From an uncultured Candidatus Saccharibacteria bacterium (GTDB lineage: Bacteria; Patescibacteriota; Minisyncoccia; Minisyncoccales; GBS-2), in the NCBI GenBank assembly GCA_964530195.1, contig CAZGXQ010000030.1, forward strand, positions 1 to 31,567: DNA of 31,567 nucleotides. The letters are read 5' to 3'. A model generated the notes under the pieces. The model searched no databases. It was not told the origin of the DNA and saw nothing but the letters and a program-made list of their open reading frames with translations. The position numbers were made by a program, and so were the translations under genes. Below, one piece after another: positions 5,448 to 27,632 of the stretch. Position 1 is the stretch's first letter, and each line of letters starts with the position of its first letter.

Positions 5448-5976
5448 TTTTCTTTTTTGAAAACAACAAAAACAAACTTATTAAAATTAAGAAAACAAAA
5501 ATTCCTGCAATTCCAAAGTTTTTTTCTAATATAATTCCTGTTTTTGTGGCAAAGAAAACCAAAATTGAACTTAAAATTACTCCAGCGCTTATTGCAAAAA
5601 ATGCAACCTTAAAAGGGAGTCCTAATAAAAAGCTAATAATTGATCCGGCCCAAGCTCCAGTAAAGGGAAGAGGAATTCCTACAAATAAAGCTAACCCCAA
5701 AAGATTTTTAAAGCTTTTCGAGCCATATTTTTTTTGGAGCCTTGAGAAAAAGAAATCTGAGAAAGATTTCAAAAAAGAAACCCTTTGAAAAAGGGATGAT
5801 TTTAGAAAATTCAAAAAAATAAAAATTAAAGGCACAACTAAAACATTTCCTAAACTTGACCAAAAGAAAGCTTCAGAATCCTTTAATTTGAAAAAGACTA
5901 AAGAAAAAGGCAGAGCGCCTCTTACTTCTGCAATTGGCAACATTGCCATCAAAAAAGTTGAGATCCTAGGATCCAT
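5437..5976 (-). CDS. COG2426-type small multidrug export-like membrane protein
   Basis: [13 protein letters not shown] ... [18 protein letters not shown] motifs; several TM segments. Confidence 0.8.
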
Positions 5977-5984
5977 ATTTTGCT

Positions 5985-6030
5985 ATTTTACCAAGTTAAA
6001 ATGGACAAGTAAAGCCAAAGTTTATAAAAT
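5985..6030. promoter_or_regulatory. divergent leaderless-type promoters (COG2426 operon and cysS)
   Basis: Minus: TGG-TAAAAT (5993-5985), 8 nt before ATG 5976. Plus: TGGACA-17-TAAAAT (6002-6030), 7 nt before ATG 6038. Confidence 0.65.
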
Positions 6031-6037
6031 TAAATTG

Positions 6038-7420
6038 ATGATTAAATTTTTTAATACCCTATCTAGAAAAATTGAGGTTTTTAATCCATTAAAAAATAAA
6101 AAAGTTGGGCTTTATACTTGCGGTCCTACAGTATATTGGTTTGCACATATTGGAAATTTAAGAACTTATATTTTTGAGGATGTATTAAAAAGAGTCTTGC
6201 TCTATAATGGCTACAAAGTAAAGCATGTGATGAATATCACTGATGTTGGACATTTAGTTTCTGATGAAGATGTAGGAGAAGATAAAATTTTATTGGCGGC
6301 AGAAAGAGAAAAAAAATCGGCAAAAGAAATTGCTAAATTTTATGAGAAAGCTTTCAAGAAAGATTTGAGAAGATTGAACATTTTAGAGCCCGATGTTTGG
6401 GTAAGAGCTACCGAAACCATTAAAGATCAGATTGAGTTTATAAAAATTTTAGAAAAAAAAGGTTTTACTTATTTAACCGAAGACGGAGTTTACTTTGATA
6501 CCTCAAAATTGAAAAAATACGGAAGACTTTGGCCAAAGGGAATGAAAATTTTACCAGGAGCTAGAGTTGAAATTATTCCTGGAAAGAGAAATCCAACAGA
6601 TTTTGCTCTTTGGAAGTTTGCAAAAAAAAGAAAAGAAATGGTTTGGAATTCTCCCTGGGGAAGAGGTTTCCCTGGTTGGCATACAGAGTGCGTTGTTATG
6701 GCAAAAAATTTTTTGGGAGTGCCATTTGACATTCATTGTGGAGGAATAGATCACATTTTGATTCATCATACTAATGAAATTGCCCAAGCAGAAGCTGCTT
6801 TTTCAAAAATTTTGGCAAACTATTGGTTACATGGTGAGTTTTTATTAGTTGAAGGAAAAAAGATGGCAAAATCTTTAGGAAATGTTTTTACTTTAAATGA
6901 TTTGATACAAAAAGGATTCAATCCTCTCTCTTTCCGCTACTTTTGTCTTCAAGCTCATTATAGATCAAAACTAAATTTTACCTTCGAAGCTTTAAAAGCA
7001 AGCGAAAGCGCCCTAAAAAATCTTTATAGTTTAGTTTCTTTTTTAGCTTCACAAAAAAATAAAAAAATCAACCTCAAAAAAATACAAAAAGAAAAAGAAA
7101 GATTTTTAAAAATCGTTAACGAAGATTTGAATACTCCCCAGGCTTTAGCCTTAATGTGGGAAGTTTTGTTAAATAAATCTTTGAATGAAAATGAAAAATA
7201 TTTAATTTTAACTGATTTTGATAGAATTTTTGGATTGAATTTAGATAAAATTCCAGCCTTGAAGATTCCGAAAAAGATTGAAAAAATGGTTTCAAAAAGG
7301 GAAAAGTTGAGAAAAGAAAAAAAATGGGAAGAAGCAGATAAGATTAGAGAGAAAATAAAAGAAGCAGGATTTATAATAGAAGATACAGAAAGTGGACCAA
7401 AAATTAGAAAAATTTTTTAG
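6038..7420 (+). CDS. cysS: cysteine--tRNA ligase (start moved from 5888 to ATG 6038)
   Basis: [56 protein letters not shown]. The upstream 50 codons overlap the opposite-strand gene. Confidence 0.97.
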
Positions 7421-8558
7421 CCTTTTCTTTCAAACAAAAGTCATAAAATTCAAGAACTTTTTGCGCAATTTTTTCAAAAGAATATTCCTTGGCTTCTTTT
7501 AAAGCTATTTTTCCCATTTTTTTTCTCAACTTTTCGTTTTTAATTAATATTTCTAAAGCCTTTGCCAATTCAAAATAGTTTTTGTTTTTGACCAAAATAC
7601 CTCCTTTTTTGTTTTTTAAAAATTCCTTGTAACCTTCGTTTGCAAAAGCTACAACCGGTTTTTGGCAAGCCATAGCTTCCAATAAAACAATTCCAAAGCT
7701 TTCACCAAAAGTTGAAGGCGCACAAAAGACATCAGCAGAGTTATAAAAACTTGCTAAATTTTCTTTTTTCTCTCCAAGAAAAATAACATTTTTTAATTTC
7801 CTTTTTCCCACAAATGATAAACACTTTTCTTTTTCTGGCCCATCCCCTACTATCAAGAGCCTTATTTTTTCAGGATATTTTTTTTCCAAAATTGCAAAGG
7901 CTTTTAACAAATACAAAAGCCCCTTTCTTTTTTCAATCCTTCCAACAAATAAAATTGTTACCTTTTTGTCTTTAAAAGAAAGGGCTGGTGGAATTTTAGG
8001 ATTGAATTTTGAAATATCTATTCCATTTGGAATTACAATTTTTGGTTTTTTATATTCTTTGAAAAAATCTAAAGTTAATTTTGAAACACCAATAATTCCA
8101 TCTATCCTTAATTGACAGATTTTGTTTAGAAAAGAAATAAAAATTGGAAAACTTCTCAAAAATTGACTTCCCTTGAGATTTGAGTGGAAAGTTAAAATAT
8201 TTAAGGTTTTAAAAGAATAAGGAGAAAATAAAATTTGAGTTGTTCCAGGAAAGCTAAAATTATGAAAATGCAAAACATCAAACTTTTCTTTTTTTAGTAC
8301 ACTTTCAATTGAAAGAGGGTTAAAAGAAATATTTAAATCTGCTATTCCGCCACAAAATTCAATGGGAAAAGAGGTGCCCAATAAAATTATGTTTTTTTCA
8401 TATTTTTCGCTTTGTTTTCTTCGAGGGACTATAATTTTTGTTTCGATATTCCGTTTTTGATATTCTTTTTCTAATCCTAAAATATGATTTTTAACACCAC
8501 CTGGTCTTAAAAAAGAATGGGCAGAAATTAAAGCTACTTTCATAATTTTTGACACCAT
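7404..8558 (-). CDS. GT4-family glycosyltransferase, PimA (phosphatidylinositol alpha-mannosyltransferase)-like
   Basis: [55 protein letters not shown]4 is secure; PimA likeness is by recalled motif similarity only. Confidence 0.88.
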
Positions 8559-8568
8559 TTTTTTCCCT

Positions 8569-8581
8569 TGGTATTATTATA
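8569..8581. promoter_or_regulatory. overlapping divergent -10 elements for dnaB (leaderless) and the GT4 gene
   Basis: Plus TGG-TATTAT (8569-8577), 8 nt before ATG 8586. Minus TATAAT (8581-8576), 17 nt before ATG 8558 with AAGGGA between. Intergenic gap is 27 bp. Confidence 0.55.
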
Positions 8582-8585
8582 AACG

Positions 8586-11222
8586 ATGACAGATAATTCT
8601 CAAATTGAAAAGCTACCTCCTCAGTCAATTGAAGCAGAGAAATCTCTTTTGGGATGTTTGATGCTCGATAAAGACGCAATTTTAAAGGTAATTGATTTTC
8701 TCTCCCCTCAAGATTTTTATAAAAGCGCACACCAAGAAATATATTTAGCTTGTCAAGAACTTTTTGCTAAAGGAGAACCAATTGATATTCTCTCCCTTTC
8801 AAATAGATTAAAAGAAAAAGGAAAATTAGAAGAAGTTGGTGGAATAAGTTATTTAACTGAATTAGTAAACAGTGTTCCTACTGCAAGCCACGTTTTCCAT
8901 TATGCAAAAATTGTTCAAAAGAAGAGGATTTTGAGAGATTTAATTTCAGCTAGTCAAGAGATCGCACTTTTGGCTTATGATGAAAGTCAAGATCCTGAGA
9001 AAATTTTAGATGAGGCCGAAAAAAGAATTTTTAGTATAGCTCAAAAAGGAATTACTCAAAACTTTATTTCAGTAAAAGATACCTTAGAAGAAGCCTTTAA
9101 TAGAATTGACCAACTCTCAAAACATGGAGGGGGTTTAAGGGGTATTCCAACAGGATTTTCAGATTTAGATAACATTTTAGCCGGTCTTCAAAAATCAGAT
9201 ATGATTATTTTAGCAGCCAGACCTACATTAGGAAAAAGTGCCTTTGCTACTTGCATTGCGGCAAACGCTGCAATCAAATACAAGGTACCTGTTGGCATTT
9301 TCTCTTTAGAAATGTCAAGAGATCAGATTGTAGATAGATTAATTTCTATGGTTTCTGGCGTGGATTTGTGGAGAATAAGAACAGGAAGATTGTCAGCTGA
9401 AGGAGAAGATAATGATTTTACTAGAATTAGAAATGCATTAAGTGTGCTCGCTGAGGCCCCAATTTATATTGATGATGGAGCTGCAACTAATATTTTACAA
9501 ATGAAAGCAATGGCAAGAAGACTTCAGGCAGAAAAAGGTTTGGGGTTATTAATTATTGATTATCTTCAATTAATTCAACCCTTAAATCCCAAAGCCTCAC
9601 CAGTGGAACAGGTTTCTGAGAATTCAAGAGCATTAAAAGCTTTGGCAAAAGAACTTAACATTCCAGTATTAGTTATTTCTCAACTTTCAAGAGCAGTAGA
9701 ACAAAGATCACCTCAAATTCCAAGACTTGCAGATTTGAGACAGTCAGGATGTTTAGCAGGAGATACTCTTTTAACTAGAGCAGATACCGGAGAGAGAGTG
9801 AAAATAAAAGACTTAGTGGGAAAAAAAGATATTTTAATTTATACCCTTGATAAAGATTGGAAGTTGAGAGTTGGGAAAATTTCTAAAGTTTTTTGGAGCG
9901 GAAAAAAGAAGGTGTATTTATTAAAAACTCGAAGTGGATTTGAGATCAAAGCTTCAGCCAATCATCCTTTTAGAAAATTTGATGGTTGGTATCCCTTAGA
10001 AAAACTAAAAATTGGTGACAAAATTGCTACAGCTAAAAAACTCATTCCCTTTGCCCCTAAAAACGAACTTTCTGAAGATGAAATCATTCTCTTGGCCCAT
10101 CTTTTAGGTGATGGTTGTGTAGTTGAGCATCAACCTATTCATTATACGAGTAGCAGTTTAAGAAATATTCAAATAGTTGCAAAAGCTGCAAAGAAATTGT
10201 TTAAAATAGAACCTCGACTCGTCCGCCAGGAAAACTGGTATCATCTTTATCTTCCATCCCCATACCATTTAGCACCAGGAAAACATCACCCGATTATAAA
10301 TTGGTATGAAAAATTAGGATTGAAACCCGCTCATACATGGGAAAAGGTTATACCCGAAGCTGTTTTTACTCTCGATAAAAAGAAATTGGCTCTTTTTCTT
10401 TCTCATCTTTGGGCGACAGATGGAAATGTTAGCGAAAGAAAAATGAAAAAAAGAAAAGCATCTACCGCTTTATTTTACTCTACAACTAGTTTAAGAATGG
10501 CTCAAGATCTAAAAGAGCTTTTGTTAAGATTTGAAATTAGAAGTAGAATTTCTGAAAAGAAAAAAGTAGGTTATAAACCATGGTATATGGTTGAAATTCA
10601 GGGAAAAGAACATCAAATGAAATTTCTTAAAGAAATTGGAGTTTTTGGTCAAGAAAAGATTGTAACTAAATTGATAAAAAATCTTGAAAAAATTGTTCCA
10701 AATACCAATTTAGATGTAGTACCAAAAGAAGTTTGGTATTTAATCGATGAAATAAGAAGGAAAAAAGAATTAAGCTGGAAACAACTTTGCCAGAGTTTAG
10801 GAGTTGCTTTTGGAGGGAGGAATTCTTTATTCAAAAGAAATATCAGTTTCCAAAGATTAAAAATAATAGCTAATCATCTCTCTTCTCCAGAACTTTCAAA
10901 TTTAGCTGAAGGGGATGTTTTTTGGGACGAAATTGTTTCAATCAAACCTTTAAAAGTTGAGGATGTTTATGATCTTACTATTCCAGGAACTCATAACTTT
11001 TTGGCTAATAATATTATTGTTCACAATTCGATTGAACAAGATGCGGATGTGGTTTTGTTTATTTATCGTGAAGATTATTATCGTCCAGAAACTTCAAGGA
11101 AAGGAATTGCCGATATTATCGTGGCTAAACACCGAAATGGTCCTGTGGGAAGAGTTGAATTATACTTTGATGAAAGAACTGTAAGTTTTAGAGATTTAGA
11201 AAAAGGTTTTTTTGAAGAATAA
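8586..11222 (+). CDS. dnaB: replicative DNA helicase DnaB containing an intein
   Basis: LPPQSIEAEKSLLG, GIPTGF, ARPTLGKS, IIDYLQL, LSQ-type VISQLSRAVEQR, DLRQSG|intein|SIEQDAD, IIVAKHRNGPVG. The spliced product would be 452 aa. Confidence 0.98.
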   Translation: MTDNSQIEKLPPQSIEAEKSLLGCLMLDKDAILKVIDFLSPQDFYKSAHQEIYLACQELFAKGEPIDILSLSNRLKEKGKLEEVGGISYLTELVNSVPTASHVFHYAKIVQKKRILRDLISASQEIALLAYDESQDPEKILDEAEKRIFSIAQKGITQNFISVKDTLEEAFNRIDQLSKHGGGLRGIPTGFSDLDNILAGLQKSDMIILAARPTLGKSAFATCIAANAAIKYKVPVGIFSLEMSRDQIVDRLISMVSGVDLWRIRTGRLSAEGEDNDFTRIRNALSVLAEAPIYIDDGAATNILQMKAMARRLQAEKGLGLLIIDYLQLIQPLNPKASPVEQVSENSRALKALAKELNIPVLVISQLSRAVEQRSPQIPRLADLRQSGCLAGDTLLTRADTGERVKIKDLVGKKDILIYTLDKDWKLRVGKISKVFWSGKKKVYLLKTRSGFEIKASANHPFRKFDGWYPLEKLKIGDKIATAKKLIPFAPKNELSEDEIILLAHLLGDGCVVEHQPIHYTSSSLRNIQIVAKAAKKLFKIEPRLVRQENWYHLYLPSPYHLAPGKHHPIINWYEKLGLKPAHTWEKVIPEAVFTLDKKKLALFLSHLWATDGNVSERKMKKRKASTALFYSTTSLRMAQDLKELLLRFEIRSRISEKKKVGYKPWYMVEIQGKEHQMKFLKEIGVFGQEKIVTKLIKNLEKIVPNTNLDVVPKEVWYLIDEIRRKKELSWKQLCQSLGVAFGGRNSLFKRNISFQRLKIIANHLSSPELSNLAEGDVFWDEIVSIKPLKVEDVYDLTIPGTHNFLANNIIVHNSIEQDADVVLFIYREDYYRPETSRKGIADIIVAKHRNGPVGRVELYFDERTVSFRDLEKGFFEE
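9750..11027 (+). mobile_element. intein (426 aa) with LAGLIDADG homing endonuclease at the RESG/SIEQ DnaB site
   Basis: Begins CLAGDT, block B ASANHPF, blocks C and E LLAHLLGDG and FLSHLWATDG, ends HNFLANNIIVHN followed by Ser+1. Confidence 0.96.
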
Positions 11223-11224
11223 AA

Positions 11225-11833
11225 ATGTACCCTCCTTCGATTCAAAAATTAATTAATTTTTTTTCTGAATTTCCTGGAGTAGGTCCAAGAACCGCTACTC
11301 GCTTTGTTTTTCATTTGTTAAAAAAGGAAAAATCAAAAATAAAAGAATTAGCTTTAGCTATTTTAGATCTAAAGAAAAAAATAAAATTTTGCGAATTTTG
11401 TTTCAAACCCTTTGAGCCGAAAGAAAGCCCAAATCAAATGCTTTGTGAAATTTGTTCAAATCCTCTTCGCGAGAAAAGTTTATTATGTGTTGTTGCAAAT
11501 GAAATTGATTTAGAAGCGATAGAAAAAACAAAAAAATACAAAGGAAGGTATTTTATATTAGGAGGAACAATTCCAGCTTTAAAAAAAGCTGATTTTGAGA
11601 AATTAAGAATTAAGGAATTAGAAAAAAGGCTCAAACATAATCCAGAAATTGAAGAAATAATTTTAGCCTTTAATCCAAATACGGAAGGAGAAGCCACAAC
11701 TTTATATTTGGAAAGAATTTTAAAACCTTATAATAAAAAAATTACAAAACTTGCTAAAGGATTGCCTATTGGAGGAGAAATTGAATACGCTGACGAAGAA
11801 ACCCTTTCTTTCGCTATTTTGAAAAGAAGTTAA
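11225..11833 (+). CDS. recR: recombination mediator RecR
   Basis: FPGVGPRTATRF, C4 zinc finger CEFC...CEIC, Toprim IILAFNPNTEGEAT, LAKGLPIGGEIEYAD. Confidence 0.96.
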   Translation: MYPPSIQKLINFFSEFPGVGPRTATRFVFHLLKKEKSKIKELALAILDLKKKIKFCEFCFKPFEPKESPNQMLCEICSNPLREKSLLCVVANEIDLEAIEKTKKYKGRYFILGGTIPALKKADFEKLRIKELEKRLKHNPEIEEIILAFNPNTEGEATTLYLERILKPYNKKITKLAKGLPIGGEIEYADEETLSFAILKRS

Positions 11834-11872
11834 ACGCTCTTTTTGTATTTTTGAGTTAAAGCAGTGCACTCC

Positions 11873-11901
11873 TTGACAAATTTTAAAAGATTTTTTATAA
11901 T
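11873..11901 (+). promoter_or_regulatory. perfect-consensus sigma70 promoter of the 11992 orphan
   Basis: TTGACA (11873-78), 17 nt, TATAAT (11896-901). Confidence 0.85.
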
Positions 11902-11925
11902 TAATATAGCTCTTTTACAAGAAAA

Positions 11926-11978
11926 CCCCTTAAGTCCTACCCAAAAAAGTAGGCGCCTGACCGAAAGGCAGGCAGGGG
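11926..11978 (+). ncRNA. candidate structured 5' leader (three-way junction); no known family assigned
   Basis: P1 CCCCT/AGGGG, P2 CCTAC/GTAGG, P3 GCCTG(A)CC-GAAA-GGCAGGC, immediately before SD AGGAGGT. A GC-rich island in very AT-rich DNA. Confidence 0.5.
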
Positions 11979-11991
11979 GAAGGAGGTAAAA

Positions 11992-12294
11992 ATGAGCAAC
12001 TTGAAAGAAGAGTTTGAGAGGTATCTTAAGAAAAACGGATTTCAAATTAGCTCGTTTCTTCTTATACTTGAGGACACGGATTCTGGCTCTGGAATTTCGG
12101 TATTTAGTTTCATTAAGGCGTTATTATCCCAATATTCGATGGGGAAAATTATGGAACTAATTGGAGCTTTAGTAGTCTATCATTTTGCAGAGATCAGGCT
12201 AGAAAACAAGGACTTGAAAATTTTGTTGACGCAAGAAGGAAAAAATGCAGTAGCTAAACTCAAAAGCTTAATGGGCCACAAACCTGTAAAGTAA
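11992..12294 (+). CDS. orphan protein, 100 aa, possible degenerate winged-helix C-terminus
   Basis: SD AGGAGGT 4 nt before ATG; own promoter and terminator. Tail ELIGALVVYHFAEIRLENKDLKILLTQEGKNAVAKL resembles the MarR/PadR wing ('LT..G'). Confidence 0.75.
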   Translation: MSNLKEEFERYLKKNGFQISSFLLILEDTDSGSGISVFSFIKALLSQYSMGKIMELIGALVVYHFAEIRLENKDLKILLTQEGKNAVAKLKSLMGHKPVK

Positions 12295-12308
12295 GAAAAG
12301 TTTTTGAG

Positions 12309-12338
12309 GACCTGAGCGGAGCTTGCTCAGGTCTTTTT
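12309..12338 (+). terminator. intrinsic terminator
   Basis: GACCTGAGC-7nt-GCTCAGGTC (9-bp perfect stem) plus TTTTT. Confidence 0.85.
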
Positions 12339-12357
12339 ATTAATAAAAAATTTTAGT

Positions 12358-12666
12358 TTATTCTATTTTTAAAATTTCCACTCTAGTAAATGGTTGGCGA
12401 TGCCCTTTTTTTACTTTGTAGCGAGTTTTTCTTCTATATTTCAAAATAGTAATCTTTTTTTTCTTTCCTTGCTTTATTACTTTTCCTATTACTTTTACTC
12501 CTTCAACAAAAGGAGTTCCAATTTTTAACTCTCCCTCTTTCTCAACTAATAAAACTCGAGAAAACTCTACTTCTTCTCCTTCTTTTTTTTCAATTCTTTC
12601 AATATTTATTCTTTTTCCAGGCTCTACTAAATATTGTTTTCCTCCCGTTTCGATTACTGCTAACAT
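12358..12666 (-). CDS. rplU: 50S ribosomal protein L21
   Basis: MLAVIETGGKQYLV ... KYRRKTRYKVKKGHRQPFT. Confidence 0.97.
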   Translation of the reverse strand: MLAVIETGGKQYLVEPGKRINIERIEKKEGEEVEFSRVLLVEKEGELKIGTPFVEGVKVIGKVIKQGKKKKITILKYRRKTRYKVKKGHRQPFTRVEILKIE

Positions 12667-12667
12667 C

Positions 12668-13603
12668 TTATTTTAATTTTGGTTTTTCTTCACCTTTTAA
12701 TTTGATAATAGACGACCTAATTTGTGAAAGATATTGTTTGTATTCAGAATAAGCATTTGAAATCATTGTTGCCCCTCGATAAATCTTATTTTCTAAAATA
12801 TTTTCCATTTCGTCAAGATTTTTTGAAATTGCTAACAAGTGATTTTGCAGATTTTCAATATCAATCGAAATTGCATATTGTAAATGGAGCCTATACATGT
12901 AGAGCAAAAGAGGCAGAACCATTGAATAAGGGATTAAAATAATATTATTTTCTCTAGCTTTCAAATGAGCTCTTTTACAAACACTAAATACTGAGTCAGG
13001 TAATGCAGCAATTGCTTGTGACCAAGTTAAATTTGGATCAATGTATTGTTTTACTTCTTTTATTCTTTCAATTACCTTTTCCTCAATTTCTTCAATGATT
13101 TCCTTTCTTTTTTCTTGGTCTTGTTCTTTTTCTAATTTTAGCAAAAGATGACCAGCTGGCCATTTTGAATCAATTGGCAATCTTTTGCCATTTGGCAAAA
13201 TTAAAGCAAATTCCACTACTTTCCCCCCAACTTTAAAATTTGTTTCAATCATTTCAGGAGGTAATTTTTTAAAAGTTTCAGTTAAAATTTCTTCTCCCGA
13301 AAGACCCTTGGTAGAGGTTCCAGCGATTATATCATCTATTCTTTTTATTCTTTCTAAAAACTCTTTTTCTCTTTCTTTTCTAATCTCATCTCTTTTTCTT
13401 AATTCTTCTAATAGATCTCGAGTTAAAGATTTTAACTCTTCTCTTGTTTTTTCTAGTCCATTTTTCAAGTTATCCTGAAACTGGCTTCCAAGGGAAATTT
13501 TTTCCTTGATTTCTTGCAATCTTTCAGTGATTTTTGTGAAAAGATAAAAGAAAACCCCAGAAACAAAAAAAGTGAAAAGGAGAATTAAAGTTTCATTCAT
13601 CAC
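12668..13603 (-). CDS. rmuC: RmuC-family DNA recombination protein (N-terminal TM, coiled coil, PD-(D/E)xK-like domain)
   Basis: KGLSGEEIL, LILPNGKRLPIDSKWP, KQYIDP..T...AIAALP. Confidence 0.8.
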   Translation of the reverse strand: MMNETLILLFTFFVSGVFFYLFTKITERLQEIKEKISLGSQFQDNLKNGLEKTREELKSLTRDLLEELRKRDEIRKEREKEFLERIKRIDDIIAGTSTKGLSGEEILTETFKKLPPEMIETNFKVGGKVVEFALILPNGKRLPIDSKWPAGHLLLKLEKEQDQEKRKEIIEEIEEKVIERIKEVKQYIDPNLTWSQAIAALPDSVFSVCKRAHLKARENNIILIPYSMVLPLLLYMYRLHLQYAISIDIENLQNHLLAISKNLDEMENILENKIYRGATMISNAYSEYKQYLSQIRSSIIKLKGEEKPKLK

Positions 13604-13604
13604 C

Positions 13605-14573
13605 TTATTTTAACCAAATTTGAGTTAAAATTTCAAATGTCAAAAAAATAAAATAAATCAAAACTAGAAAATAACCTTCCCTGGCAGTGATTTTTTTTCC
13701 TGTTTTAATAAAAACAAGAAAGAATAAAGCTGAAATTAAAAGAAAAATCCTTGCTATAAAAAATGGAGAGAGCTCAAGATTTTCAATTGGAGAAATTAAC
13801 ACAACAGACCCCAAAACTAAAGTTGCAGTTAAAATTACAGACCCCATTACATCTCCAACGATAAACCAGTCTTGAGATTTTCTGGCTGCTTGTAAAGTAA
13901 ATGACAATTCAGGCAAGGCGTTTCCAAATCCAACTATTAATATTCCAATTATTCCTAAATCTAAATAAAAATATTTTGAAAAGAAAATTGCAGAGTTTAC
14001 GATTTGTCTTCCAGCTAAATAAAGCAAAACCGCAGAAAAGATAAAAAATAACACATGTTTCAAAAAAGATTTTATGTTTTGAGAACCCACGTCTTTATCG
14101 TAAACTTTTTCGAATCTTTCTCTTTTTTGAAATAACCAACTAAGATAGAACAAAAAGGCGCTCAAAAGCAAAATTCCGTCAATTCTGTTTAAATTTCCAT
14201 CTAAAGCAAGTAAAAGTGGTAAAACTGCGACTAAAATCGTAAAAATAGCGCTTCCTTGGACAGTTCTACTTGGCACAGAGAGACCAGCCTTAGAAATTAT
14301 AGCTGAGAGACCAATAATTAATGTTAAAGAACAAATATTAGTTCCAACCACATCACCAAAAGCTAAAATTGAAACTTTATTTAAAGCAGAAATTACATCT
14401 ACAACAAGATTTGGAATGGTTGTTGCTATGGCAATGGTGAAAAAGGAGACGACAAACTCTTTCCATTTTAAAAACCTTGAAATTTTCTTTAAACTTTCAA
14501 TTAAAAAACTACTTGAAAAAAATAAAATTAAAAACGAAAAGATAAAAAGTAAAATATGTGCGATTAAATCCAT
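13605..14573 (-). CDS. CaCA-superfamily (YrbG/NCX-like) cation exchanger
   Basis: Two alpha-repeats (IATTIPNL...GDVVGTNI and GNALPEL...GDVMGS), RIDGILLL and AREGYFL, about 10 TM segments. Confidence 0.82.
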   Translation of the reverse strand: MDLIAHILLFIFSFLILFFSSSFLIESLKKISRFLKWKEFVVSFFTIAIATTIPNLVVDVISALNKVSILAFGDVVGTNICSLTLIIGLSAIISKAGLSVPSRTVQGSAIFTILVAVLPLLLALDGNLNRIDGILLLSAFLFYLSWLFQKRERFEKVYDKDVGSQNIKSFLKHVLFFIFSAVLLYLAGRQIVNSAIFFSKYFYLDLGIIGILIVGFGNALPELSFTLQAARKSQDWFIVGDVMGSVILTATLVLGSVVLISPIENLELSPFFIARIFLLISALFFLVFIKTGKKITAREGYFLVLIYFIFLTFEILTQIWLK

Positions 14574-15676
14574 TTTAAAAAATGAAGAATTTCAAGAATT
14601 ACCCCAAAGACCAAAATTAAAAATAAAGGATAAATTAAAATTGATTTTGGTTTTATTTTTTTGTACATTGCCAAAATTAAAATTCCGTCAATTCCCAAAA
14701 GAATTGCTCCAACAAAAGAAATGACCAAAATAAATTCTTTAATACCAAGAAGATAAAAAAACAAAGGAACAAAACAAGTGAGGAAAAAAGAAAGATTTTT
14801 ATTAAACCCTAGATCGTACCAAAAAACTTTTTTTAAAGTAAGACCTAAACTAATAAATGAAGTAAAAGTAGTTAAAACCCCAAAAAAAAGAGTTAATGAA
14901 ACTATTCCATCTCCCAAAAAATATTTTAATCCAGAAAGCGCAGATTCTGTCGTATTTTTTCCACAGATTCCCAAGATTAAAAAAATAAAAAATAGATAAG
15001 CAAAAATTGGAATTAAAATGGCAACAGGAATTATTTTTAAAAGTGATTGTTTTTTATCCTTTAGCATTTCTTCTACTTCTGGAATTAATGCAGCTCCCCA
15101 AAGAGAAAAAAGAATGGGTCCATAAGGCAAAATAAAAGTTTTAAGAGTCGGAGCTTTTGTAATTAATAAATTTTCAATTTTAATTAAATGCCAACCCTTA
15201 AAGAAAATTAAAAAAAGAGAGAAAAAGAAAAGCAAAAGACCCCAAAATTCAATTTTAGCTACGACCTTTATTCCAAAAAAGATTAAGATGGCACCAACTA
15301 AAAAGTAAAAAAGAGTATAAATTAATTCATTTCCTCCAAAAATTGGAGAAAGTAAAGAGTTTAAAAATTCTCCCCCAACTATTAAATAAGCTAAAATTGC
15401 TCCTAATAATCCAAAAACAGTTGAAAAAATAGCAACTCTTTCTCCATTTTTTCCCAGATAAATTTTTGCAAAACCTGGAAATCTTTTATAATCTTCTGTT
15501 TTTAAAGCAATTTCTCCAAGCAATGAATGAATTAAAATTGCAACCATTCCTAACAAAAGAAAATATCCCAAAACAGTCCAAAACCCGCTTACCAATGTAA
15601 TATAGGGTAGGGCAAAAATTCCCACCCCAATTATAGTTCCAGAAAGAGTTGCAATAGCTAAAATTGTTTCTTTCAT
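14564..15676 (-). CDS. amino-acid permease (aromatic/HAAAP-like family)
   Basis: AIATLSGTIIGVGIFALPY, PYGPILFSLWG...IPE, TTFTSFISLG; about 11 TM segments. Confidence 0.82.
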   Translation of the reverse strand: MKETILAIATLSGTIIGVGIFALPYITLVSGFWTVLGYFLLLGMVAILIHSLLGEIALKTEDYKRFPGFAKIYLGKNGERVAIFSTVFGLLGAILAYLIVGGEFLNSLLSPIFGGNELIYTLFYFLVGAILIFFGIKVVAKIEFWGLLLFFFSLFLIFFKGWHLIKIENLLITKAPTLKTFILPYGPILFSLWGAALIPEVEEMLKDKKQSLLKIIPVAILIPIFAYLFFIFLILGICGKNTTESALSGLKYFLGDGIVSLTLFFGVLTTFTSFISLGLTLKKVFWYDLGFNKNLSFFLTCFVPLFFYLLGIKEFILVISFVGAILLGIDGILILAMYKKIKPKSILIYPLFLILVFGVILEILHFLKWI

Positions 15677-15680
15677 TTTG

Positions 15681-15753
15681 TGCCGCCAACCGGATTTGAA
15701 CCGGTGTTTTCAGCTTGAGAAGCTGATGTCCTAGGCCACTAGACGATGGCGGC
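15681..15753 (-). tRNA. tRNA-Glu (anticodon CTC), CCA not encoded
   Basis: Acceptor GCCGCCA/TGGCGGC, D-arm CGTCTAGTGGCCTAGGAC, anticodon arm TCAGC-TTCTCAA-GCTGA, T-arm CCGG-TTCAAAT-CCGG. Confidence 0.95.
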
Positions 15754-15767
15754 GAAACACTCAAATT

Positions 15768-16832
15768 TTACAAAATTTTTTTAATTTCATCAACTATTTC
15801 TTTCATTTTCATTTCTCTTGAACCATCAACTAAAATCAAATCTCCTTCTTGAATTTTCTCTTTTAAAGTTGAGATTCCCTCTTTTATTGTATTAAAATGA
15901 AAAATCTTTTCTGAATCCATTCCCCTTTCAAACGCTTTTTGCGAAATAAATTTTGTTCTTTGGCCAAAAGTAAATAACAAATCTACATTTTTGACTATTC
16001 TTTCTCCAATTGCTTCATGAGCTTCAATTGTATATTTGCCAATTCCAATTATATCTCCCAAAACTGCTATTTTTCTTTTTGCCCAATTAATTTTTCCAAG
16101 AATCTCTATCGCTTCTATCATTGAAAAAATAGTTGCAGAATCTGTGTCATCAATAATCCAAGAATTTTTTATTCCCTCAATTAATTTCATTTTTCCTGGA
16201 ATTGATGAGTAATTTTTTAAACTTTGGCAAATTTCAACCAAATTTAAACCCAAAATTGTTCCCACAGCTATAGCTGAAAGTCCTGAATAAATTTGCTCTT
16301 TACCAAATGTTCCCTCTATCCAAAAAGGAACAATGTTTCCTTTGTAGCTCACTTTAAAGTTTACTCCCCGATTCAATTTTACTTCCTCTGCTCTAAAATC
16401 ACTTCCCTTTTGAAACCCAAAAGTAATTTCATTTAAGTTTGTTTCGTCTTTTATTTCTCTTACAGTTTCATCATCAAAATTCAAAACCAAATATCCAAAG
16501 TAAGGAATAGTCTTTGCTAACTTTTTAATTTCGTAAGTTTTTTCAATTTCACCAGCAAAAAAATCTTTATCAAATGGAATATCCCCAACATGAGTTATAA
16601 CTAAAATTGGGAGCTGAGAATTTTTTATTAAAAAATTTAATCTCTTTATTTCCCTTTCTTTTTTTAGTTCGGAATCTAAAATTAGAACATCTTTACCAAT
16701 TCTAAAGTGAGGGCTTAAAACACATTTTATTGCCTCTTTAGCGCAAACCCTTCCTTCTCCAGTAATAATTACTACTTTTGGTTTTTTAAATACTATTTGA
16801 AAATCTTTAAAAAAATTAAAAATTTCACTCAT
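15768..16832 (-). CDS. MurF-like Mur ligase with degenerate active-site motifs
   Basis: Fold motifs LVLNFDD, IIDD, KIAVLGD and LILV.GSR place it in MurF, but the P-loop reads ITGEGRVCAKE (no GKT). Confidence 0.75.
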   Translation of the reverse strand: MSEIFNFFKDFQIVFKKPKVVIITGEGRVCAKEAIKCVLSPHFRIGKDVLILDSELKKEREIKRLNFLIKNSQLPILVITHVGDIPFDKDFFAGEIEKTYEIKKLAKTIPYFGYLVLNFDDETVREIKDETNLNEITFGFQKGSDFRAEEVKLNRGVNFKVSYKGNIVPFWIEGTFGKEQIYSGLSAIAVGTILGLNLVEICQSLKNYSSIPGKMKLIEGIKNSWIIDDTDSATIFSMIEAIEILGKINWAKRKIAVLGDIIGIGKYTIEAHEAIGERIVKNVDLLFTFGQRTKFISQKAFERGMDSEKIFHFNTIKEGISTLKEKIQEGDLILVDGSREMKMKEIVDEIKKIL

Positions 16833-19606: not shown

Positions 19607-19609
19607 TTT

Positions 19610-20041: not shown

Positions 20042-20066
20042 GATTTTCCACAAAAGATGATTATTA

Positions 20067-20129
20067 TCCCAAAGTTTTCCACAATTTCCCACTCAATTCC
20101 AAGATATCTTTTTTAAATTTAAAAGTCAA
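20067..20129 (-). promoter_or_regulatory. mraZ promoter and three MraZ-type direct repeats
   Basis: TTGACT (20129-24), 17 nt, TATCTT (20106-01). Downstream GTGGGA / GTGGAA / TTGGGA at exact 10-bp period (20092, 20082, 20072). Confidence 0.75.
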
Positions 20130-20198
20130 TAGAAAAAAATGATCCTCAAAATTTAATAGAAAAAAGCGATTTTTTCCACAAATAATCCACAGTCAAAT

Positions 20199-20221
20199 AA
20201 AAAAAAGCCACAAAAAGTGGC
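20199..20221 (-). terminator. intrinsic terminator after the Clp-like ATPase
   Basis: GCCAC-TTTTT-GTGGC followed by a long T run on the minus strand. Confidence 0.65.
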
Positions 20222-20242
20222 AAGTTTTTTAAAAGATATTTT

Positions 20243-22816: not shown

Positions 22817-23201
22817 AAAAAAAAGTTATAATGGAAATTAATGGCAAAAACAACCAAAAGATTAAAACCGTTGGTGCTAAAATTAAAACGAAAATTTCAA
22901 ACAGAAGACCAAATAAAATTACAAAAGTTCTTATAAAAGCACCAAGAGTTCTTGAAATTAAATTTGAAAAGCGAACCTCAAAAAACTGCCAAATGTCTAT
23001 TCCTCTTGAAGTATAAACCCAGCGGTAACCATGCCAATGGGAAAAATAGGTTTTTAAAAGTAAAGTGATAGAAAAAAAATAATTTCCAAATTTTAGAAGA
23101 TTTTTGAAAATCAAAAGAATTTTCTTTGGAATTTTAATAAAATACCAATCGTAAAACAAAAGCAAAAGGGATTTTCTTTTTACAGTTTCTAAAAATTCCA
23201 T
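22794..23201 (-). CDS. hypothetical membrane protein, 135 aa, coupled to the Clp-like ATPase
   Basis: Hydrophobic ORF with a C-terminal TM hairpin; overlaps the ATPase start by 23 nt. TGG-TATAAT (23216-23208) lies 6 nt before its ATG. Confidence 0.75.
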   Translation of the reverse strand: MEFLETVKRKSLLLLFYDWYFIKIPKKILLIFKNLLKFGNYFFSITLLLKTYFSHWHGYRWVYTSRGIDIWQFFEVRFSNLISRTLGAFIRTFVILFGLLFEIFVLILAPTVLIFWLFLPLISIITFFYGFKLLF

Positions 23202-23216
23202 ACTTTAATTATACCA

Positions 23217-23897
23217 TTATCTTTCCACCATTAAAAATCTGAATTTTTTAAATTGGTCGCGAAAAAATCTAAATTTTTTGAATTTTAATTTACTTAAAAT
23301 TTTTTCAATCTCCTCTTTTTGTAATGGATCAAATTCCATAAAGAGAAGCCCCTCCTTTTTTATATGATCTCTTGCTTCAGTTAAAAATCTCCTAATCCAA
23401 AAAAGCCCATCTTTGCCACCAAAAATTGCTCTTTTTGGTTCATAAAGCAAAACCGATTTTTGGACTTCATTTATTCTTTCTTTTGCTACATATGGAGGAT
23501 TAGCAAAAATAAAATCATATTTTTTGTTTTTGATTTTTTCAAATAAATTTGAAAGAAAAATCTTGTACCTTTTTTTTGGAATTTTATTTAACTTTAAGTT
23601 TATTTTAATTTGCTCTATTGCTTTTTTGTCTATATCAACAAAGTCAACAACACTATTTTCAATATTTTTTAAAATGGCAATTCCAATACACCCAGAACCC
23701 GAAAAGATATCTAAAAATTTTGGCTTTTTCAATTTACAACTTGCAATCTTCAATCTGCAATCTTTTATAGCTTTTTTTACCCAGAATTTCGTCTCCTCTC
23801 TTGGAATAAAGACTCTCTTTCTTAAATCAATTTTGCAACCTAAAAATTTAACTTCTCCCCTTTTGTATTCTTTTGGGAGCTTCTCTTTTAAAATCAT
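23217..23897 (-). CDS. prmC: HemK/PrmC release-factor glutamine methyltransferase lacking most of the N-terminal domain
   Basis: VFIPREET, FLDIFSGSGCIGI, FANPPY, LYEPKRAIFGGKDGL. Confidence 0.82.
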   Translation of the reverse strand: MILKEKLPKEYKRGEVKFLGCKIDLRKRVFIPREETKFWVKKAIKDCRLKIASCKLKKPKFLDIFSGSGCIGIAILKNIENSVVDFVDIDKKAIEQIKINLKLNKIPKKRYKIFLSNLFEKIKNKKYDFIFANPPYVAKERINEVQKSVLLYEPKRAIFGGKDGLFWIRRFLTEARDHIKKEGLLFMEFDPLQKEEIEKILSKLKFKKFRFFRDQFKKFRFLMVER

Positions 23898-24229
23898 TTT
23901 TTAATTAACTTTATTCCTATTTGAGAAATTTGACTTCCACCAAAAATGAAAATTCCAGCTAAAATCGATTGAGAAATTAAATTTAAAAGCTTAAAGAAAG
24001 TATCGATTGGCAATATTTCTTTTAACTCTTCTTCAATCATTTTTCTAACTTCATCTTTGCTTGTGGGGAATTTAGCTTTTGTTGAGGGTTCTGTTTTTTT
24101 AGCTTCAACTTTAAAAATTTCAGGAATTTTTTCTTTTCCAGTGAAGATGTTATAGGAAAAATATAGGGTCGAAAATATCATTATTAATCCAATAATTAGC
24201 AATATCCAACCAAAAATTTTTGTAGCCAT
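23894..24229 (-). CDS. hypothetical two-TM membrane protein
   Basis: Two hydrophobic segments flank a charged loop; ATGA overlap with prmC. Confidence 0.7.
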   Translation of the reverse strand: MATKIFGWILLIIGLIMIFSTLYFSYNIFTGKEKIPEIFKVEAKKTEPSTKAKFPTSKDEVRKMIEEELKEILPIDTFFKLLNLISQSILAGIFIFGGSQISQIGIKLIKK

Positions 24230-24244
24230 AAGGTTTTAAATTTT

Positions 24245-24562
24245 TTAGCGACCTTTTAGTTCGTTCAAAATGTATTCAGGGATTGGAGTTTTTCCTATAG
24301 GACTTTTTCCAGGATATTTCCAGACACTAATTATTTTTAATTTTTGATTTTCAATTTCATACATTACCCAAATCTCTTTTGGAGATTTTTTTGTTCCAGC
24401 AGTTTGCATTACAGCGATTGTTCCAGGAGCTATTCCCTCCTCTTTTCTTTCAGGTTTTTTTAAAACTCGCAAAACTCTTTTTTCTGAAAGCTGATATTGC
24501 TGTAATTTTTCTTTTGAATGTTTTGTCCACAAAATTTGATTCTGAGAAATTATAAGCTCCAT
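24245..24562 (-). CDS. DUF4258-like (RelE/BrnT-fold-like) small protein
   Basis: WTKHSKEKLQQYQLSEKRVLRVLKKP ... LKIISVW pattern. ATG 24562 is 1 nt after the upstream stop. Family call is tentative. Confidence 0.5.
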   Translation of the reverse strand: MELIISQNQILWTKHSKEKLQQYQLSEKRVLRVLKKPERKEEGIAPGTIAVMQTAGTKKSPKEIWVMYEIENQKLKIISVWKYPGKSPIGKTPIPEYILNELKGR

Positions 24563-24563
24563 T

Positions 24564-25226
24564 TTAGTCAAAAAGGTTAGAAATTAAATATCGATATTTT
24601 AGTCTATCCTTTCCCTTCCACACTTTATGAATTTTTTTGATCCACTCTTTTTTCCAAAAAGAAGGTTCAGGCAAAAATAAAAAACCATCTTTATATCCCA
24701 AGTATCGTGTTTTAAATTTTGAATGTAAAAACGCTAAAATTGCACAATAAAATGCCATTTTTTCATCTTCATTTTTAAAGCTAATCTTTTTTTCTTTTAA
24801 AATTTCTTCAATCTTTTTGAGGTTTAAAATTTTTTCTAAAAAAGTGGGGAAAACCTCAATTAAATTTGTGTCTAAAACAAAACCTCTTTTTTCTAATTTT
24901 CTTTTTAATTCAAAAGCAAAATCACAAAGTTGAGGCATTAAAGCAGGAGGAATAGGATTAATTTTATTTTGCCGAAATATTTTTTGTGACAAAAATTTTT
25001 CAAAAAGTCTCATTTTTCCCTTACCCCTTCCTTTAGTTAAGGGTGCATCAATTGCAATTACTTTTATTGATTTTAAGTAAGGGGAGATTTTTTTAAGCAA
25101 CTCTTTCCCAAAAATTTTATCTTTAAAATAGATTTTTATCCCATCATCTTCTTTTAGAATACAAATTCCGGTTGTTTTGTTTTCTCTACCCCCCAGATCA
25201 ATTCCCAAAAATAAATTCTCTTTCAT
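24564..25226 (-). CDS. DUF429-family RNase H-like putative nuclease
   Basis: FLGIDLGG, VIAIDAPL, IEVFPT motifs. Confidence 0.72.
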   Translation of the reverse strand: MKENLFLGIDLGGRENKTTGICILKEDDGIKIYFKDKIFGKELLKKISPYLKSIKVIAIDAPLTKGRGKGKMRLFEKFLSQKIFRQNKINPIPPALMPQLCDFAFELKRKLEKRGFVLDTNLIEVFPTFLEKILNLKKIEEILKEKKISFKNEDEKMAFYCAILAFLHSKFKTRYLGYKDGFLFLPEPSFWKKEWIKKIHKVWKGKDRLKYRYLISNLFD

Positions 25227-25462
25227 TTTACTCCAGGAGAGGAAACAATTAGATAGTAACTCTCTTTAATAGGATCTTCCTTGTCTAAAATTGGTTCTAT
25301 TGCTCTCGATACTTTTGCACAATCTTCAACGCTTACCCCTCCCTTTTTATCAATTGTAATCACCAATTCTGTTTTCTTTCCTTTTTTTTGAATTTCAAAA
25401 GATACAAGCGAATATCCCATTTTTTCTATCTTTTTTTTGATTAATTTTTCAACTTTTTCCAT
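25223..25462 (-). CDS. rimP: ribosome maturation factor RimP, N-terminal domain only (79 aa)
   Basis: LVITIDKKGGVSVEDCAKVSRAI..ILD.EDPI...Y.LIVSSPG, then stop. TGG-TATAAT lies 7 nt before ATG 25462. Confidence 0.85.
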   Translation of the reverse strand: MEKVEKLIKKKIEKMGYSLVSFEIQKKGKKTELVITIDKKGGVSVEDCAKVSRAIEPILDKEDPIKESYYLIVSSPGVK

Positions 25463-25478
25463 CAAACAAATTATACCA

Positions 25479-26624
25479 TTAAATTTTACCTTTTTCTATA
25501 TCTTTTCTAAGCTTTTCAACAAAAGTGTTGAAATGAAAAAGATTATGAAAAGTTAAAAGCTTTTTTGCGGTCATTTCTTCCGCTCTAACCAAATGCGCTA
25601 GATAATTTCTTCTATAATTTTGGCAAACAAAACAAGCACATTTTTTATCAATTGGATTTTTATCTCTTAAAAATTCACTCTTTTTTAAATTTAATTTTTG
25701 GTTTTCAGAAAAAGCTATTCCATGACGCGCATAATGAGTGGGAACTGTACAGTCAAAAAGATCAATTCCATACTTTACAATCTCTTTTATATCTTCCAAA
25801 TAGCCAATCCCTAAAAGATGGCGAGGTTTTTTTTCGTTCAAATTTGGTATTACCCAACCTAAAATTTCAAATAATTGCTTTTTACTTTTTCCTAAATCAC
25901 CCCCAATCCCGAACCCATCAAAATCTAAAGAATTTATAAACCTTGCACTCTCTATTCTTAATCTTTTAAAATGAGATCCTTGGACGATTCCAAAAAGAGC
26001 CTGATTTTTACTTCTTTCTTTCAAACAAATTTTTGCCCAATAGTGGGTTCTTTCTAAAGCTTCTTTAGCATAATCAAAAGTAGCCAAAGGGGGCGTACAT
26101 TCGTCAAAGGAAAAAATAATATCTGCGCCCAAATTTTTTTGAATTTCCATTGACTCTTTTGGTCCCAAAAATAATTCTCTTCCATCTAAAGGGGATTTGA
26201 AAAAGACACCATCTTTTGTAATTTTCAAAAACCTTGGACTATCCCCTACCCTTATTTTTTCACTCTTTTCTTCTGGAAAGGTTTTTAAAACTTTTCCTAT
26301 TTTAAAATCAAATCCAAATCCCAAAGAAAAAACTTGATATCCTCCAGAATCTGTCATTAAAGGTTTTTTCCAATTCATAAATTTGTGCAATCCTCCAGCT
26401 TCTTTGATAATTTTTTCTCCAGGTTTCAAATGCAAATGAAAAGTATTGCAAATTAAAATTTGGGTTTTCGTTTCTTCCACCTCTCTGCTTTCTAAAGTTT
26501 TAACTACTGCCTGAGTAGCTACTGGCACTAAACAAGGCGTTATTACTTCTCCGTGTTTTGTTTTAATTAAGCCTATTCTTGCAAGACTTTTCTTTGATTT
26601 TTTTAAAATTTTAAACTCAAACAT
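25479..26624 (-). CDS. tgt: tRNA-guanine transglycosylase
   Basis: NTFHL, LMTDSGGYQVFSL, FDEC, IVQGS, PRHLLGIG, GIDLFDC, Zn site CACFVC...H. Confidence 0.96.
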   Translation of the reverse strand: MFEFKILKKSKKSLARIGLIKTKHGEVITPCLVPVATQAVVKTLESREVEETKTQILICNTFHLHLKPGEKIIKEAGGLHKFMNWKKPLMTDSGGYQVFSLGFGFDFKIGKVLKTFPEEKSEKIRVGDSPRFLKITKDGVFFKSPLDGRELFLGPKESMEIQKNLGADIIFSFDECTPPLATFDYAKEALERTHYWAKICLKERSKNQALFGIVQGSHFKRLRIESARFINSLDFDGFGIGGDLGKSKKQLFEILGWVIPNLNEKKPRHLLGIGYLEDIKEIVKYGIDLFDCTVPTHYARHGIAFSENQKLNLKKSEFLRDKNPIDKKCACFVCQNYRRNYLAHLVRAEEMTAKKLLTFHNLFHFNTFVEKLRKDIEKGKI

Positions 26625-26631
26625 TAATTAA

Positions 26632-26653
26632 AATATACCAGATTTGATATAAT
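26632..26653. promoter_or_regulatory. back-to-back extended -10 promoters for leaderless tgt and GTPase transcripts
   Basis: Minus TGG-TATATT (26640-32), 7 nt before ATG 26624. Plus TGA-TATAAT (26645-53), 7 nt before ATG 26661. Gap is 36 bp. Confidence 0.72.
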
Positions 26654-26660
26654 TTAAAAT

Positions 26661-27584
26661 ATGCCGGCAAATTTGCCCCCTCAATTTTTTGAAATTCAAA
26701 AGAAATTGAATGAAGCTTCTTCGATTGAAGAAAAAATTCAAATTTATGAAGAGTTATTAAGAATTGTACCAAAACACAAAGGAACAGAAAGAATTCAGGA
26801 GGATTTAAAAAGAAAAATAGCTAGATTAAGGAAAGCAGAAAAGAAAAAGCCAAAGCACACCCAATTATTTTCGATTAAAAAAGAAGGAGCGGGACAAATT
26901 GTAATCGTTGGTCCTCCAAATTCTGGAAAGTCAAGTTTACTAAATGTCTTGACCCAAGCTAATGTAAAGGTTGCTCCTTACCCCTTTACTACTCAAGTTC
27001 CTCAACCTGGAATGGTACCTTATGAAAATTTGCTTTTTCAGTTAATAGATATGCCCCCAATAACGAAAGATTTTCTTTTGGGATGGCAAAAAGAATTAAT
27101 GAAGAATGCAGATTTATTGTTAATTTTGCTGGACCTTTCAAGTGAAAATTTTTTTGAAGACTTAAATTTCTTTCAAAATAAAATTTTAGAATTGAATTTA
27201 ACAAACAAAAAAATTATTTGGGTTGGAAACAAAATTGATTTGGAAGAGGGAAAGAAAAATTTTGAAAAAATAAAAGAGAAATTTAAAATTTCACCAATTT
27301 CTGTACTAAAGAAAATCGGTTTGGAAGATTTAAAGAAAGAGATTTTTGAAAAAATGGAGATAGTAAGAGTTTATCCCAAACCTAAAAATAAAGAGCCAAA
27401 TTTTACCCAACCTCTTGTTGTAAAAAAAGGAACTAAATTAATTGATTTGGCAAAAGAAATTCATCAAAATCTTTTTGAGAATTTTAAATTTGCAAAGTTA
27501 TTCAAAAAAGATTCAAAAAAGCCAAAAATTGTGGGAAAAGAATATGTTTTGGAAGACGAAGATATTGTTGAAATTCACACTTAA
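26661..27584 (+). CDS. OBG-superfamily DRG/Rbg1-like GTPase with C-terminal TGS domain
   Basis: MPANLPP, VPKHKGT, G1 GPPNSGKS, G2 YPFTT, G3 DMPP, G4 NKID, TGS VGKEYVLEDEDIVEIH. Confidence 0.87.
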   Translation: MPANLPPQFFEIQKKLNEASSIEEKIQIYEELLRIVPKHKGTERIQEDLKRKIARLRKAEKKKPKHTQLFSIKKEGAGQIVIVGPPNSGKSSLLNVLTQANVKVAPYPFTTQVPQPGMVPYENLLFQLIDMPPITKDFLLGWQKELMKNADLLLILLDLSSENFFEDLNFFQNKILELNLTNKKIIWVGNKIDLEEGKKNFEKIKEKFKISPISVLKKIGLEDLKKEIFEKMEIVRVYPKPKNKEPNFTQPLVVKKGTKLIDLAKEIHQNLFENFKFAKLFKKDSKKPKIVGKEYVLEDEDIVEIHT

Positions 27585-27614: not shown

Positions 27615-27632
27615 AAAAAGAAAGGAGGGGAA

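Follow-up and report, generated by a model that had tools for sequence, protein, structure and literature searches.

Operon-first leaderless genes of Actinobacteria and Deinococcus-Thermus carry a Pribnow-type -10 box 6-8 nt before their start codons (PMC6028130, PMC3160421), a distance that GeneMarkS-2 also obtained for leaderless M. tuberculosis genes, measured from Pribnow box to start codon (PMC6028130), and in genomes of the GeneMarkS-2 'group C' promoter-adjacent genes without a Shine-Dalgarno (SD) sequence occur alongside SD-led genes (PMC6028130, PMC3160421). Both features recur in the DNA analysed here, a densely packed stretch of 31.6 kb with a GC content of 30% (the window), in which seven start codons are preceded at 6-8 nt by a -10 box and four others by a strong SD sequence; the classes with which we compare it are the group C genomes and the TA-led genes of Zheng et al. 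2011. The window derives from an uncultivated Patescibacteria bacterium (CPR, or candidate phyla radiation; Parcubacteria-type) from hot springs. Near-identical DNA is present in hot-spring metagenomes, and a DNA search placed the organism in hot-spring and sediment metagenomes. Among species-representative genomes, those with the top protein matches are Patescibacteria, mostly labelled Candidatus Staskawiczbacteria or other Parcubacteria, with an identity of at most 73% for Tgt.

The window departs from the group C models in that its lineage, Patescibacteria/Parcubacteria, is not named in the text of the two papers (PMC6028130, PMC3160421), and in that extended -10 promoters, with a TG one base upstream of the hexamer (TGn), are prominent. 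Furthermore, its genome is AT-rich whereas the model groups in question are GC-rich, and its transcription start sites are predicted from promoter geometry. In Patescibacteria loci the signal is moreover confined to ATG, whereas mycobacteria use GUG as well for leaderless starts. The resemblance to the extended -10 promoters of E. coli and Gram-positive bacteria (TGnTATAAT) extends to the position of the TG, to a -35 box that is weak or absent, and to a -35 box that is good where the TG is missing, but the elements of the window are predicted from sequence and two of them directly adjoin a stop codon (TAA-TGGTATAAT), which is an unusual packaging.

In Parcubacteria the anti-SD motif has been found in only 48% of the 16S genes, with alternative initiation left open (Tsurumaki et al. 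2022, PMC9297842), and leaderless initiation is not addressed in that paper. The window organism belongs to the same broad lineage, yet it evidently uses SD sequences. In our literature searches no paper came up that connects leaderless mRNAs to CPR, Patescibacteria, Parcubacteria or Saccharibacteria, and the only CPR start-site set found, that of Nanosynbacter lyticus, was inferred from RNA-seq coverage (PMC12641261). The promoter-at-ATG design as such is already known in bacteria, and what would be new here is its description for this phylum.

Start codons preceded by a -10 box

The first-pass annotation described seven ATG codons with a -10 hexamer 6-8 nt upstream, and when the sequence was re-read all seven boxes were present exactly as described, six of them with the TGn extension and none with an SD-like sequence in its spacer of 6-8 nt (AGCAAAAT, TAAATTG, TATAAACG, TAAAGT, TTGTTTG, TTAATTA and TTAAAAT). 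The start codon is ATG at all seven. In the Sm_multidrug_ex membrane protein gene (5437-5976, minus strand; Pfam PF06695, E=2e-28) the site at 5974..5993 consists of TGGTAAAAT (5985-5993), eight nucleotides and the ATG (5974-5976), and the counterpart in L085, a locus syntenic with the window at about 84% nucleotide identity, has TGCTAAAAT-N8-ATG despite a divergent N-terminus. The site of cysS (6038-7420, plus strand; 6002..6040) is the sole one without TGn and combines a -35 box TGGACA (6002-6007; 5/6 consensus matches) at 17 bp with TAAAAT (6025-6030), N7 and ATG, while that of dnaB (8586-11222, plus strand; 8549..8588) has both a perfect TTGACA (8549-8554) at 17 bp and the TGn, its TGGTATTAT (8569-8577) being a TATTAT hexamer preceded by TGG and followed by N8 and ATG; the dnaB elements are identical in L085. 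At tgt (minus strand, 26622..26640) TGGTATATT (26632-26640) is followed by N7 and ATG (26622-26624), and at the gene for a DRG/Obg-like GTPase with a TGS domain (plus strand, 26645..26663) TGATATAAT (26645-26653) is followed by N7 and ATG (26661-26663).

The remaining two sites, both on the minus strand, lie within runs of genes. Ahead of the gene for a 135-residue membrane protein (23199..23219) the TAA of prmC (23217-23219) is followed by TGGTATAAT (23208-23216), N6 and ATG (23199-23201), and ahead of the gene starting at 25462, which encodes a RimP_N domain (Pfam, E=5e-26), the TAA of tgt (25479-25481) is followed by TGGTATAAT (25470-25478), N7 and ATG (25460-25462; site 25460..25481). In both, the TGG comes immediately after the TAA of the preceding same-strand gene, and the gaps between the genes are only 15 and 16 nt. 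These are internal promoters and not operon heads in the usual sense, so that the description of the sites as operon-leading holds for five of the seven. A candidate eighth site of the same internal kind precedes an RmuC-like gene (minus strand, 13598..13636), with TTGAAA, 18 bp, TAAAAT (13607-13612), N6 and ATG 13600; the site shares bases with the stop codon of the antiporter gene that precedes it, and GTG 13603 is a possible alternative start.

The divergent intergenic gaps of 61, 27 and 36 bp had been given correctly. In the 27-bp gap the -10 boxes of dnaB (TATTAT, 8572-8577, plus strand) and of a GT4 glycosyltransferase gene (TATAAT, 8576-8581, minus strand) overlap, and these two putative promoters probably compete for RNA polymerase.

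The position of the boxes is far from random. The window holds 1472 TAnnnT words and, counting both strands, 74 TGnTAnnnT words, and 6 of its 33 starts have TGnTAnnnT at a spacer of 6-8 nt, compared with a mean of 0.25 when each upstream region is shuffled; none of 5000 such shuffles reached six, and 3-nt windows placed at other offsets of these upstream regions contain a mean of 0.17. Furthermore, the five TGn sites other than dnaB have poor -35 boxes with no more than 4/6 consensus matches, as expected for extended -10 promoters, and a generic promoter scanner, of which only top-scoring and position-specific matches were used, independently picks the dnaB, cysS, Sm_multidrug_ex and RimP_N sites. 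That the seven -10 boxes are real promoter-type elements, marked by either TGn or a good -35 box at 17 bp, is thus supported by their sequence.

Recurrence among related Patescibacteria

Around homologues of Tgt and CysS we fetched 160 loci, of which 135 are non-redundant Patescibacteria loci amounting to 1.72 Mb, and in these an annotation-free test was made by measuring, for each TGnTAnnnT on either strand, the spacer to an ATG that opens an open reading frame (ORF) of at least 100 codons. The counts at spacers of 6, 7 and 8 nt are 59, 34 and 36, where the background is flat at about 10 per spacer, so that the motif is concentrated at 6-8 nt in related loci; an equal frequency at other distances, which would have spoken against leaderless starts, is not seen. 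The peak is seen for ATG only, with none at GTG, TTG, CTG or ATT, and it is found in every GC class and is sharpest at a GC content of at least 44% (18 at spacer 6 compared with about 2), while it is missing in 12 non-CPR control loci from the same search. A TGA stop-codon artefact behind the TGn was considered and ruled out, as the n is evenly A, C, G and T in the relatives.

Within the spacer 6-8 class of these relatives the TG is enriched (18.7% vs 7.2%), as are -35 matches of at least 5/6 (8.3% vs 3.2%) and TTG at the -35 position with 17-bp spacing, and these enrichments hold although about two thirds of the class is background. The joint enrichment of TG and of the TTG at -35 indicates that these sites behave as promoters.

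The orthologues point in the same direction. TAnnnT lies at a spacer of 6-8 nt in 34 of 66 distinct upstream regions of CysS orthologues and in 21 of 58 upstream regions of Tgt orthologues, the mode being 6, and among the positive orthologues are those of Kaiserbacteria with a GC content of 54-57%, for example with GGGTATCCT-N7-ATG ahead of Tgt. In L085 the promoters of Sm_multidrug_ex, cysS and dnaB hold their geometry while intergenic bases, and even an N-terminus, differ, and the -10 box 6 nt before cysS is kept in L087 and in L089, the latter a relative of the window at about 70% nucleotide identity. The 129 ORFs that carry the extended signature recurrently encode DnaB (13-14), CysS (13), Obg (9) and GtrA (7), a list that is biased by the sampling of loci around CysS and Tgt. 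In L004, which is about 70% identical across the right half of the window, strict conservation was not seen for the tgt or the 23201 site; the latter is absent, the homologue there being coupled to the upstream gene with a gap of 4 nt. The architecture thus recurs among relatives while individual promoters turn over.

For a rough estimate across the clade we used simple ORF-based gene calls with the first ATG as start, which dilutes real signals and cannot create them. Among 1013 unit-leading genes of the relatives, TAnnnT is found at spacers of 6-8 nt in 249 (25%) compared with 12% at other offsets, TGnTAnnnT in 84 (8%) compared with 1.3%, and a 5-mer SD sequence in 66 (6.5%) compared with 1.2%, whereas the extended motif precedes just 6 (1%) of 462 tightly coupled internal genes, where about 2 (0.4%) are expected. 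The leaderless signature is therefore at least as common as the SD sequence at unit heads in the Parcubacteria relatives.

Probable leaderless initiation and its alternatives

In our judgement the seven sites are quite likely promoters of the sigma-70 type from which transcription begins at the AUG or no more than 2 nt away from it, and which thereby give rise to leaderless mRNAs. At these seven, possibly eight, genes the housekeeping sigma-70-type RNA polymerase would recognise either an extended -10 promoter (TGnTAtaaT), a type that would need little or no -35 box, or a -35/-10 promoter. Bacterial RNA polymerase initiates 7-9 nt downstream of the -10 box with a preference for purines. Given spacers of 6-8 nt, the first transcribed base would be the A of the ATG or lie 1-2 nt before it, the mRNA would consequently have no room for an SD sequence, and initiation would have to occur on a 5'-terminal AUG, a mode of ribosome loading with which the ATG-only signal agrees well. 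The geometry is furthermore in line with the -10 box being conserved 7 bp upstream of the transcription start site across 49 mapped bacteria (PMC12641261). Downstream genes, which for the most part have overlaps or gaps of 1-4 nt, would probably be translated by termination-reinitiation, in some cases with the aid of GGAG inside the gene upstream, and classic starts with promoter, leader and AGGAGG serve a minority of genes in the same genome.

Several points weigh against this interpretation. Generic two-hexamer promoter matches in the window are at shuffle level (66 vs 52.7±9.9 and 56 vs 50.4±7.4), which in DNA of 30% GC means that the case rests on the position of the motifs and not on their presence. 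Promoter positions also turn over fast, as tgt in L004 is internal and SD-led (GGAG), and as the L004 orthologue of the DRG GTPase gene has TGGTATAAT with a spacer of 12 nt to its ATG. Searches for RNA runs made with tgt, with window positions 5400-12700 and with the relative L089 listed none. At spacers of 7-8 nt the start may furthermore lie 1-2 nt ahead of the A, and while the motif positions, their enrichment, the promoter-like features, the ATG specificity and the recurrence at orthologues are observed, the points at which transcription starts and the way in which ribosomes load are inferred from promoter geometry.

It could be argued that the TA-rich boxes are not promoters at all but AT-rich non-SD elements that load ribosomes or enhance translation on longer transcripts with leaders, comparable to Bacteroidota non-SD motifs, in which case the true promoters would be found further upstream inside neighbouring genes. 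Such boxes come cheaply at 30% GC, the SD signal is weak in the Parcubacteria relatives, half of the Parcubacteria reportedly lack the anti-SD motif (PMC9297842), and two of the sites are situated in runs of same-strand genes, which must be spanned by read-through transcripts. However, TGn, TTGACA or TGGACA at exactly 17 bp and the TTG enrichment in relatives are features that concern RNA polymerase, the order of the spacer peak (6 > 7 ~ 8 >> 5, 9) mirrors the selection of transcription start sites, and a ribosomal element should be expected before coupled and leading genes alike, whereas the motif is rare before the former (6/462 vs 84/1013), all of which makes this explanation improbable. 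A mere accumulation of TATAAT-like words by chance in AT-rich intergenic DNA may be thought to follow from the large number of TAnnnT and TGnTAnnnT words in the window and from the shuffle-level generic matches, but it is hardly credible in view of the shuffles, of the flat background at other offsets and of the conservation of the architecture at orthologues even in genomes of 54-57% GC.

The promoters might also be real and the ATGs mis-assigned, with translation beginning at a downstream codon behind an ordinary leader. Start codons in metagenome bins are indeed often mis-called, and the public CysS start on this very contig differs from ours, but the N-termini of Tgt (MFEFKILKKS) and CysS (M-x-K-[LF]-[YF]-N-T-L) can be aligned from residue 1-4 onwards in dozens of orthologues, and this conservation identifies the proposed ATGs as the true starts. 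Since in addition no more than 7-17 residues separate the proposed starts from the beginning of the Pfam domains and the peak is specific to ATGs that open ORFs of at least 100 residues, a misplacement of the starts seems very improbable, and leaderless transcription from promoters adjacent to the ATG is the reading that we retain.

SD-led genes and other leaders

The claim of the first-pass annotation that operon-leading genes are systematically leaderless is too strong, as only 5 of about 13 unit-leading genes are of the leaderless type, a share that falls inside the 25-50% reported for group C. Divided into classes, the 33 protein genes of the window comprise 7 of leaderless type, 16 that are tightly coupled, 4 that are SD-led and 6 others. 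Strong AGGAGG-type SD sequences lie 4-5 nt ahead of the starts at 1039 (minus), 3538 (minus), 11992 (plus) and 27633 (plus), genes on which the first-pass annotation is silent, and judged by these four sites, which are at the correct distance, the organism evidently still uses SD sequences. The co-occurrence of leaderless-type and SD-led genes makes this a mixed genome of the group C type.

For three of the four AGGAGG genes a consensus promoter and a leader were identified as well. The hypothetical gene 2732-3538 (minus strand; region 3539..3595) is preceded by TTGACA-17/18-TAAAAA (3566-3595), a leader of about 20 nt and the SD sequence AAAGGAGGTG (3544-3553), its promoter being conserved in L085, and the hypothetical gene 27633-27947 (plus strand; 27586..27635) by TTGACA-17-TAAAGT (27586-27614), a short leader and AAGGAGGGG (27622-27630). 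The hypothetical gene 11992-12294 (plus strand; 11873..11994), of 100 residues, has a perfect TTGACA-17-TATAAT (11873-11901) located 90 nt upstream, a leader of about 84 nt and the SD sequence AAGGAGGT (11980-11987). This leader is GC-rich and has a stable predicted fold (-30 kcal/mol, z = -3.4) in which the SD sequence is paired, and a role as regulatory leader or thermosensor is conceivable, though no credible Rfam family matches 11902-11991. The fourth, the gene 857-1039 on the minus strand, has the SD sequence AGGAGGTGA. A Pfam search assigned no family to any of these four genes. The leaderless-type genes all belong to conserved families with the exception of the 135-residue membrane protein, and the AGGAGG genes are all without Pfam families.

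Four more genes appear, by the distance of their promoter elements, to have short leaders, namely mraZ with TGGGATAAT 21 nt upstream of its ATG, the GT4 gene with TATAAT 17 nt upstream in addition to AAGGGA, padR with TTGACA-17-TAAATT 12 nt upstream, and ino1 with a promoter 47 nt upstream. Upstream of mraZ (ATG 20041), at 20042-20100 on the minus strand, GTGG[GA]AAA repeats with a period of 10 nt overlap the TGGGATAAT box and are conserved in L004; they probably form the MraZ operator. A terminator-like hairpin is found at 20207-20221 between this repeat region and the clpB-like gene.

Probable coupling of internal genes

The tight junctions noted earlier are borne out, since at 16 of the 23 same-strand junctions between protein genes the neighbours overlap or leave a gap of no more than 4 nt, as in systems of termination-reinitiation coupling with ATGA and TAATG overlaps. 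Compared with those systems, coupling in the window is deduced from gap lengths, and the presence of GGAG within the upstream gene at several junctions (ftsI, ftsL and DUF429) means that it need not be SD-free and may involve SD-assisted restart. That leaderless initiation together with coupling is the main mode, as had been proposed, is fair by number (7+16 = 23 of 33 genes), with the reservation that the leaderless status follows from promoter geometry.

A different kind of junction is formed by tRNA-Glu(CUC), which on the minus strand (15674..15793) has murF on one side and the gene for an amino-acid permease on the other. Here a promoter-like TTGATG-17-TAAAAT is followed by the tRNA (15680-15753), and the permease ATG (15676) is located 4 nt past the discriminator base; the spacing between tRNA and permease gene is 4-5 nt in L085 (19333-19405) and L089 (19287-19360), and 10-11 nt separate the tRNA from a -10 box upstream, which reads TGGTAAAAT in L089. 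By analogy with the tRNA punctuation of mitochondria, 3' processing of the tRNA would leave a near-leaderless permease mRNA.

Implications

The arrangement bears on annotation, as the Sm_multidrug_ex gene (5437-5976) is missing from the public gene calls on this contig, which include a spurious ORF of 80 residues on the opposite strand and start CysS at TTG 5888 (510 residues) instead of ATG 6038, that is 50 codons too early; gene finders built around the SD sequence probably go wrong at many CPR genes likewise. A widespread promoter-at-ATG architecture would furthermore offer a concrete and testable answer to how initiation proceeds without the anti-SD motif in Parcubacteria (PMC9297842). In L113, from a Patescibacteria relative whose CysS is 59% identical, the 16S gene at 1563-2050 (minus strand) has the 3' end GGAUCAC-ACAUUUU without CCUCC, which agrees with the reported loss of the anti-SD motif in part of the Parcubacteria; this is the only one of the 160 loci with a 16S 3' end, and being from a distant relative it is not direct evidence on the window organism. 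It may even be speculated that leaderless initiation and reinitiation, perhaps along with tRNA-punctuated mRNAs, form the dominant mode throughout the Parcubacteria and have co-evolved with anti-SD loss and reduced ribosomes, and although we consider this broad proposal rather doubtful, it would, if true, give a large bacterial radiation an initiation logic nearer to that of archaea or mitochondria than to that of model bacteria. On a more practical note, the TGGTATAAT-N6/7-ATG cassette would be a ready-made minimal expression signal for the genetics of Patescibacteria, where promoters are essentially uncharacterised.

Gene content of the window

The genes of the window include padR, efp, dnaX, cysS, the GT4 glycosyltransferase gene, dnaB, recR and rplU, the dcw cluster mraZ-rsmH-ftsL-ftsI-murF, and the clpB-like gene, prmC, the RimP_N gene, tgt, the DRG/Obg-like GTPase gene and two tRNAs, the latter being all that an Rfam scan of the window returned. 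Locus L084 stems from the same organism as the window. According to Pfam matches, the DnaB encoded at 8586-11222 (plus strand) contains an intervening intein, which carries a LAGLIDADG homing-endonuclease domain. The cysS gene (plus strand) and the GT4 gene (minus strand) are convergent and overlap by 17 nt at 7404-7420, which leaves no room for a terminator between them.

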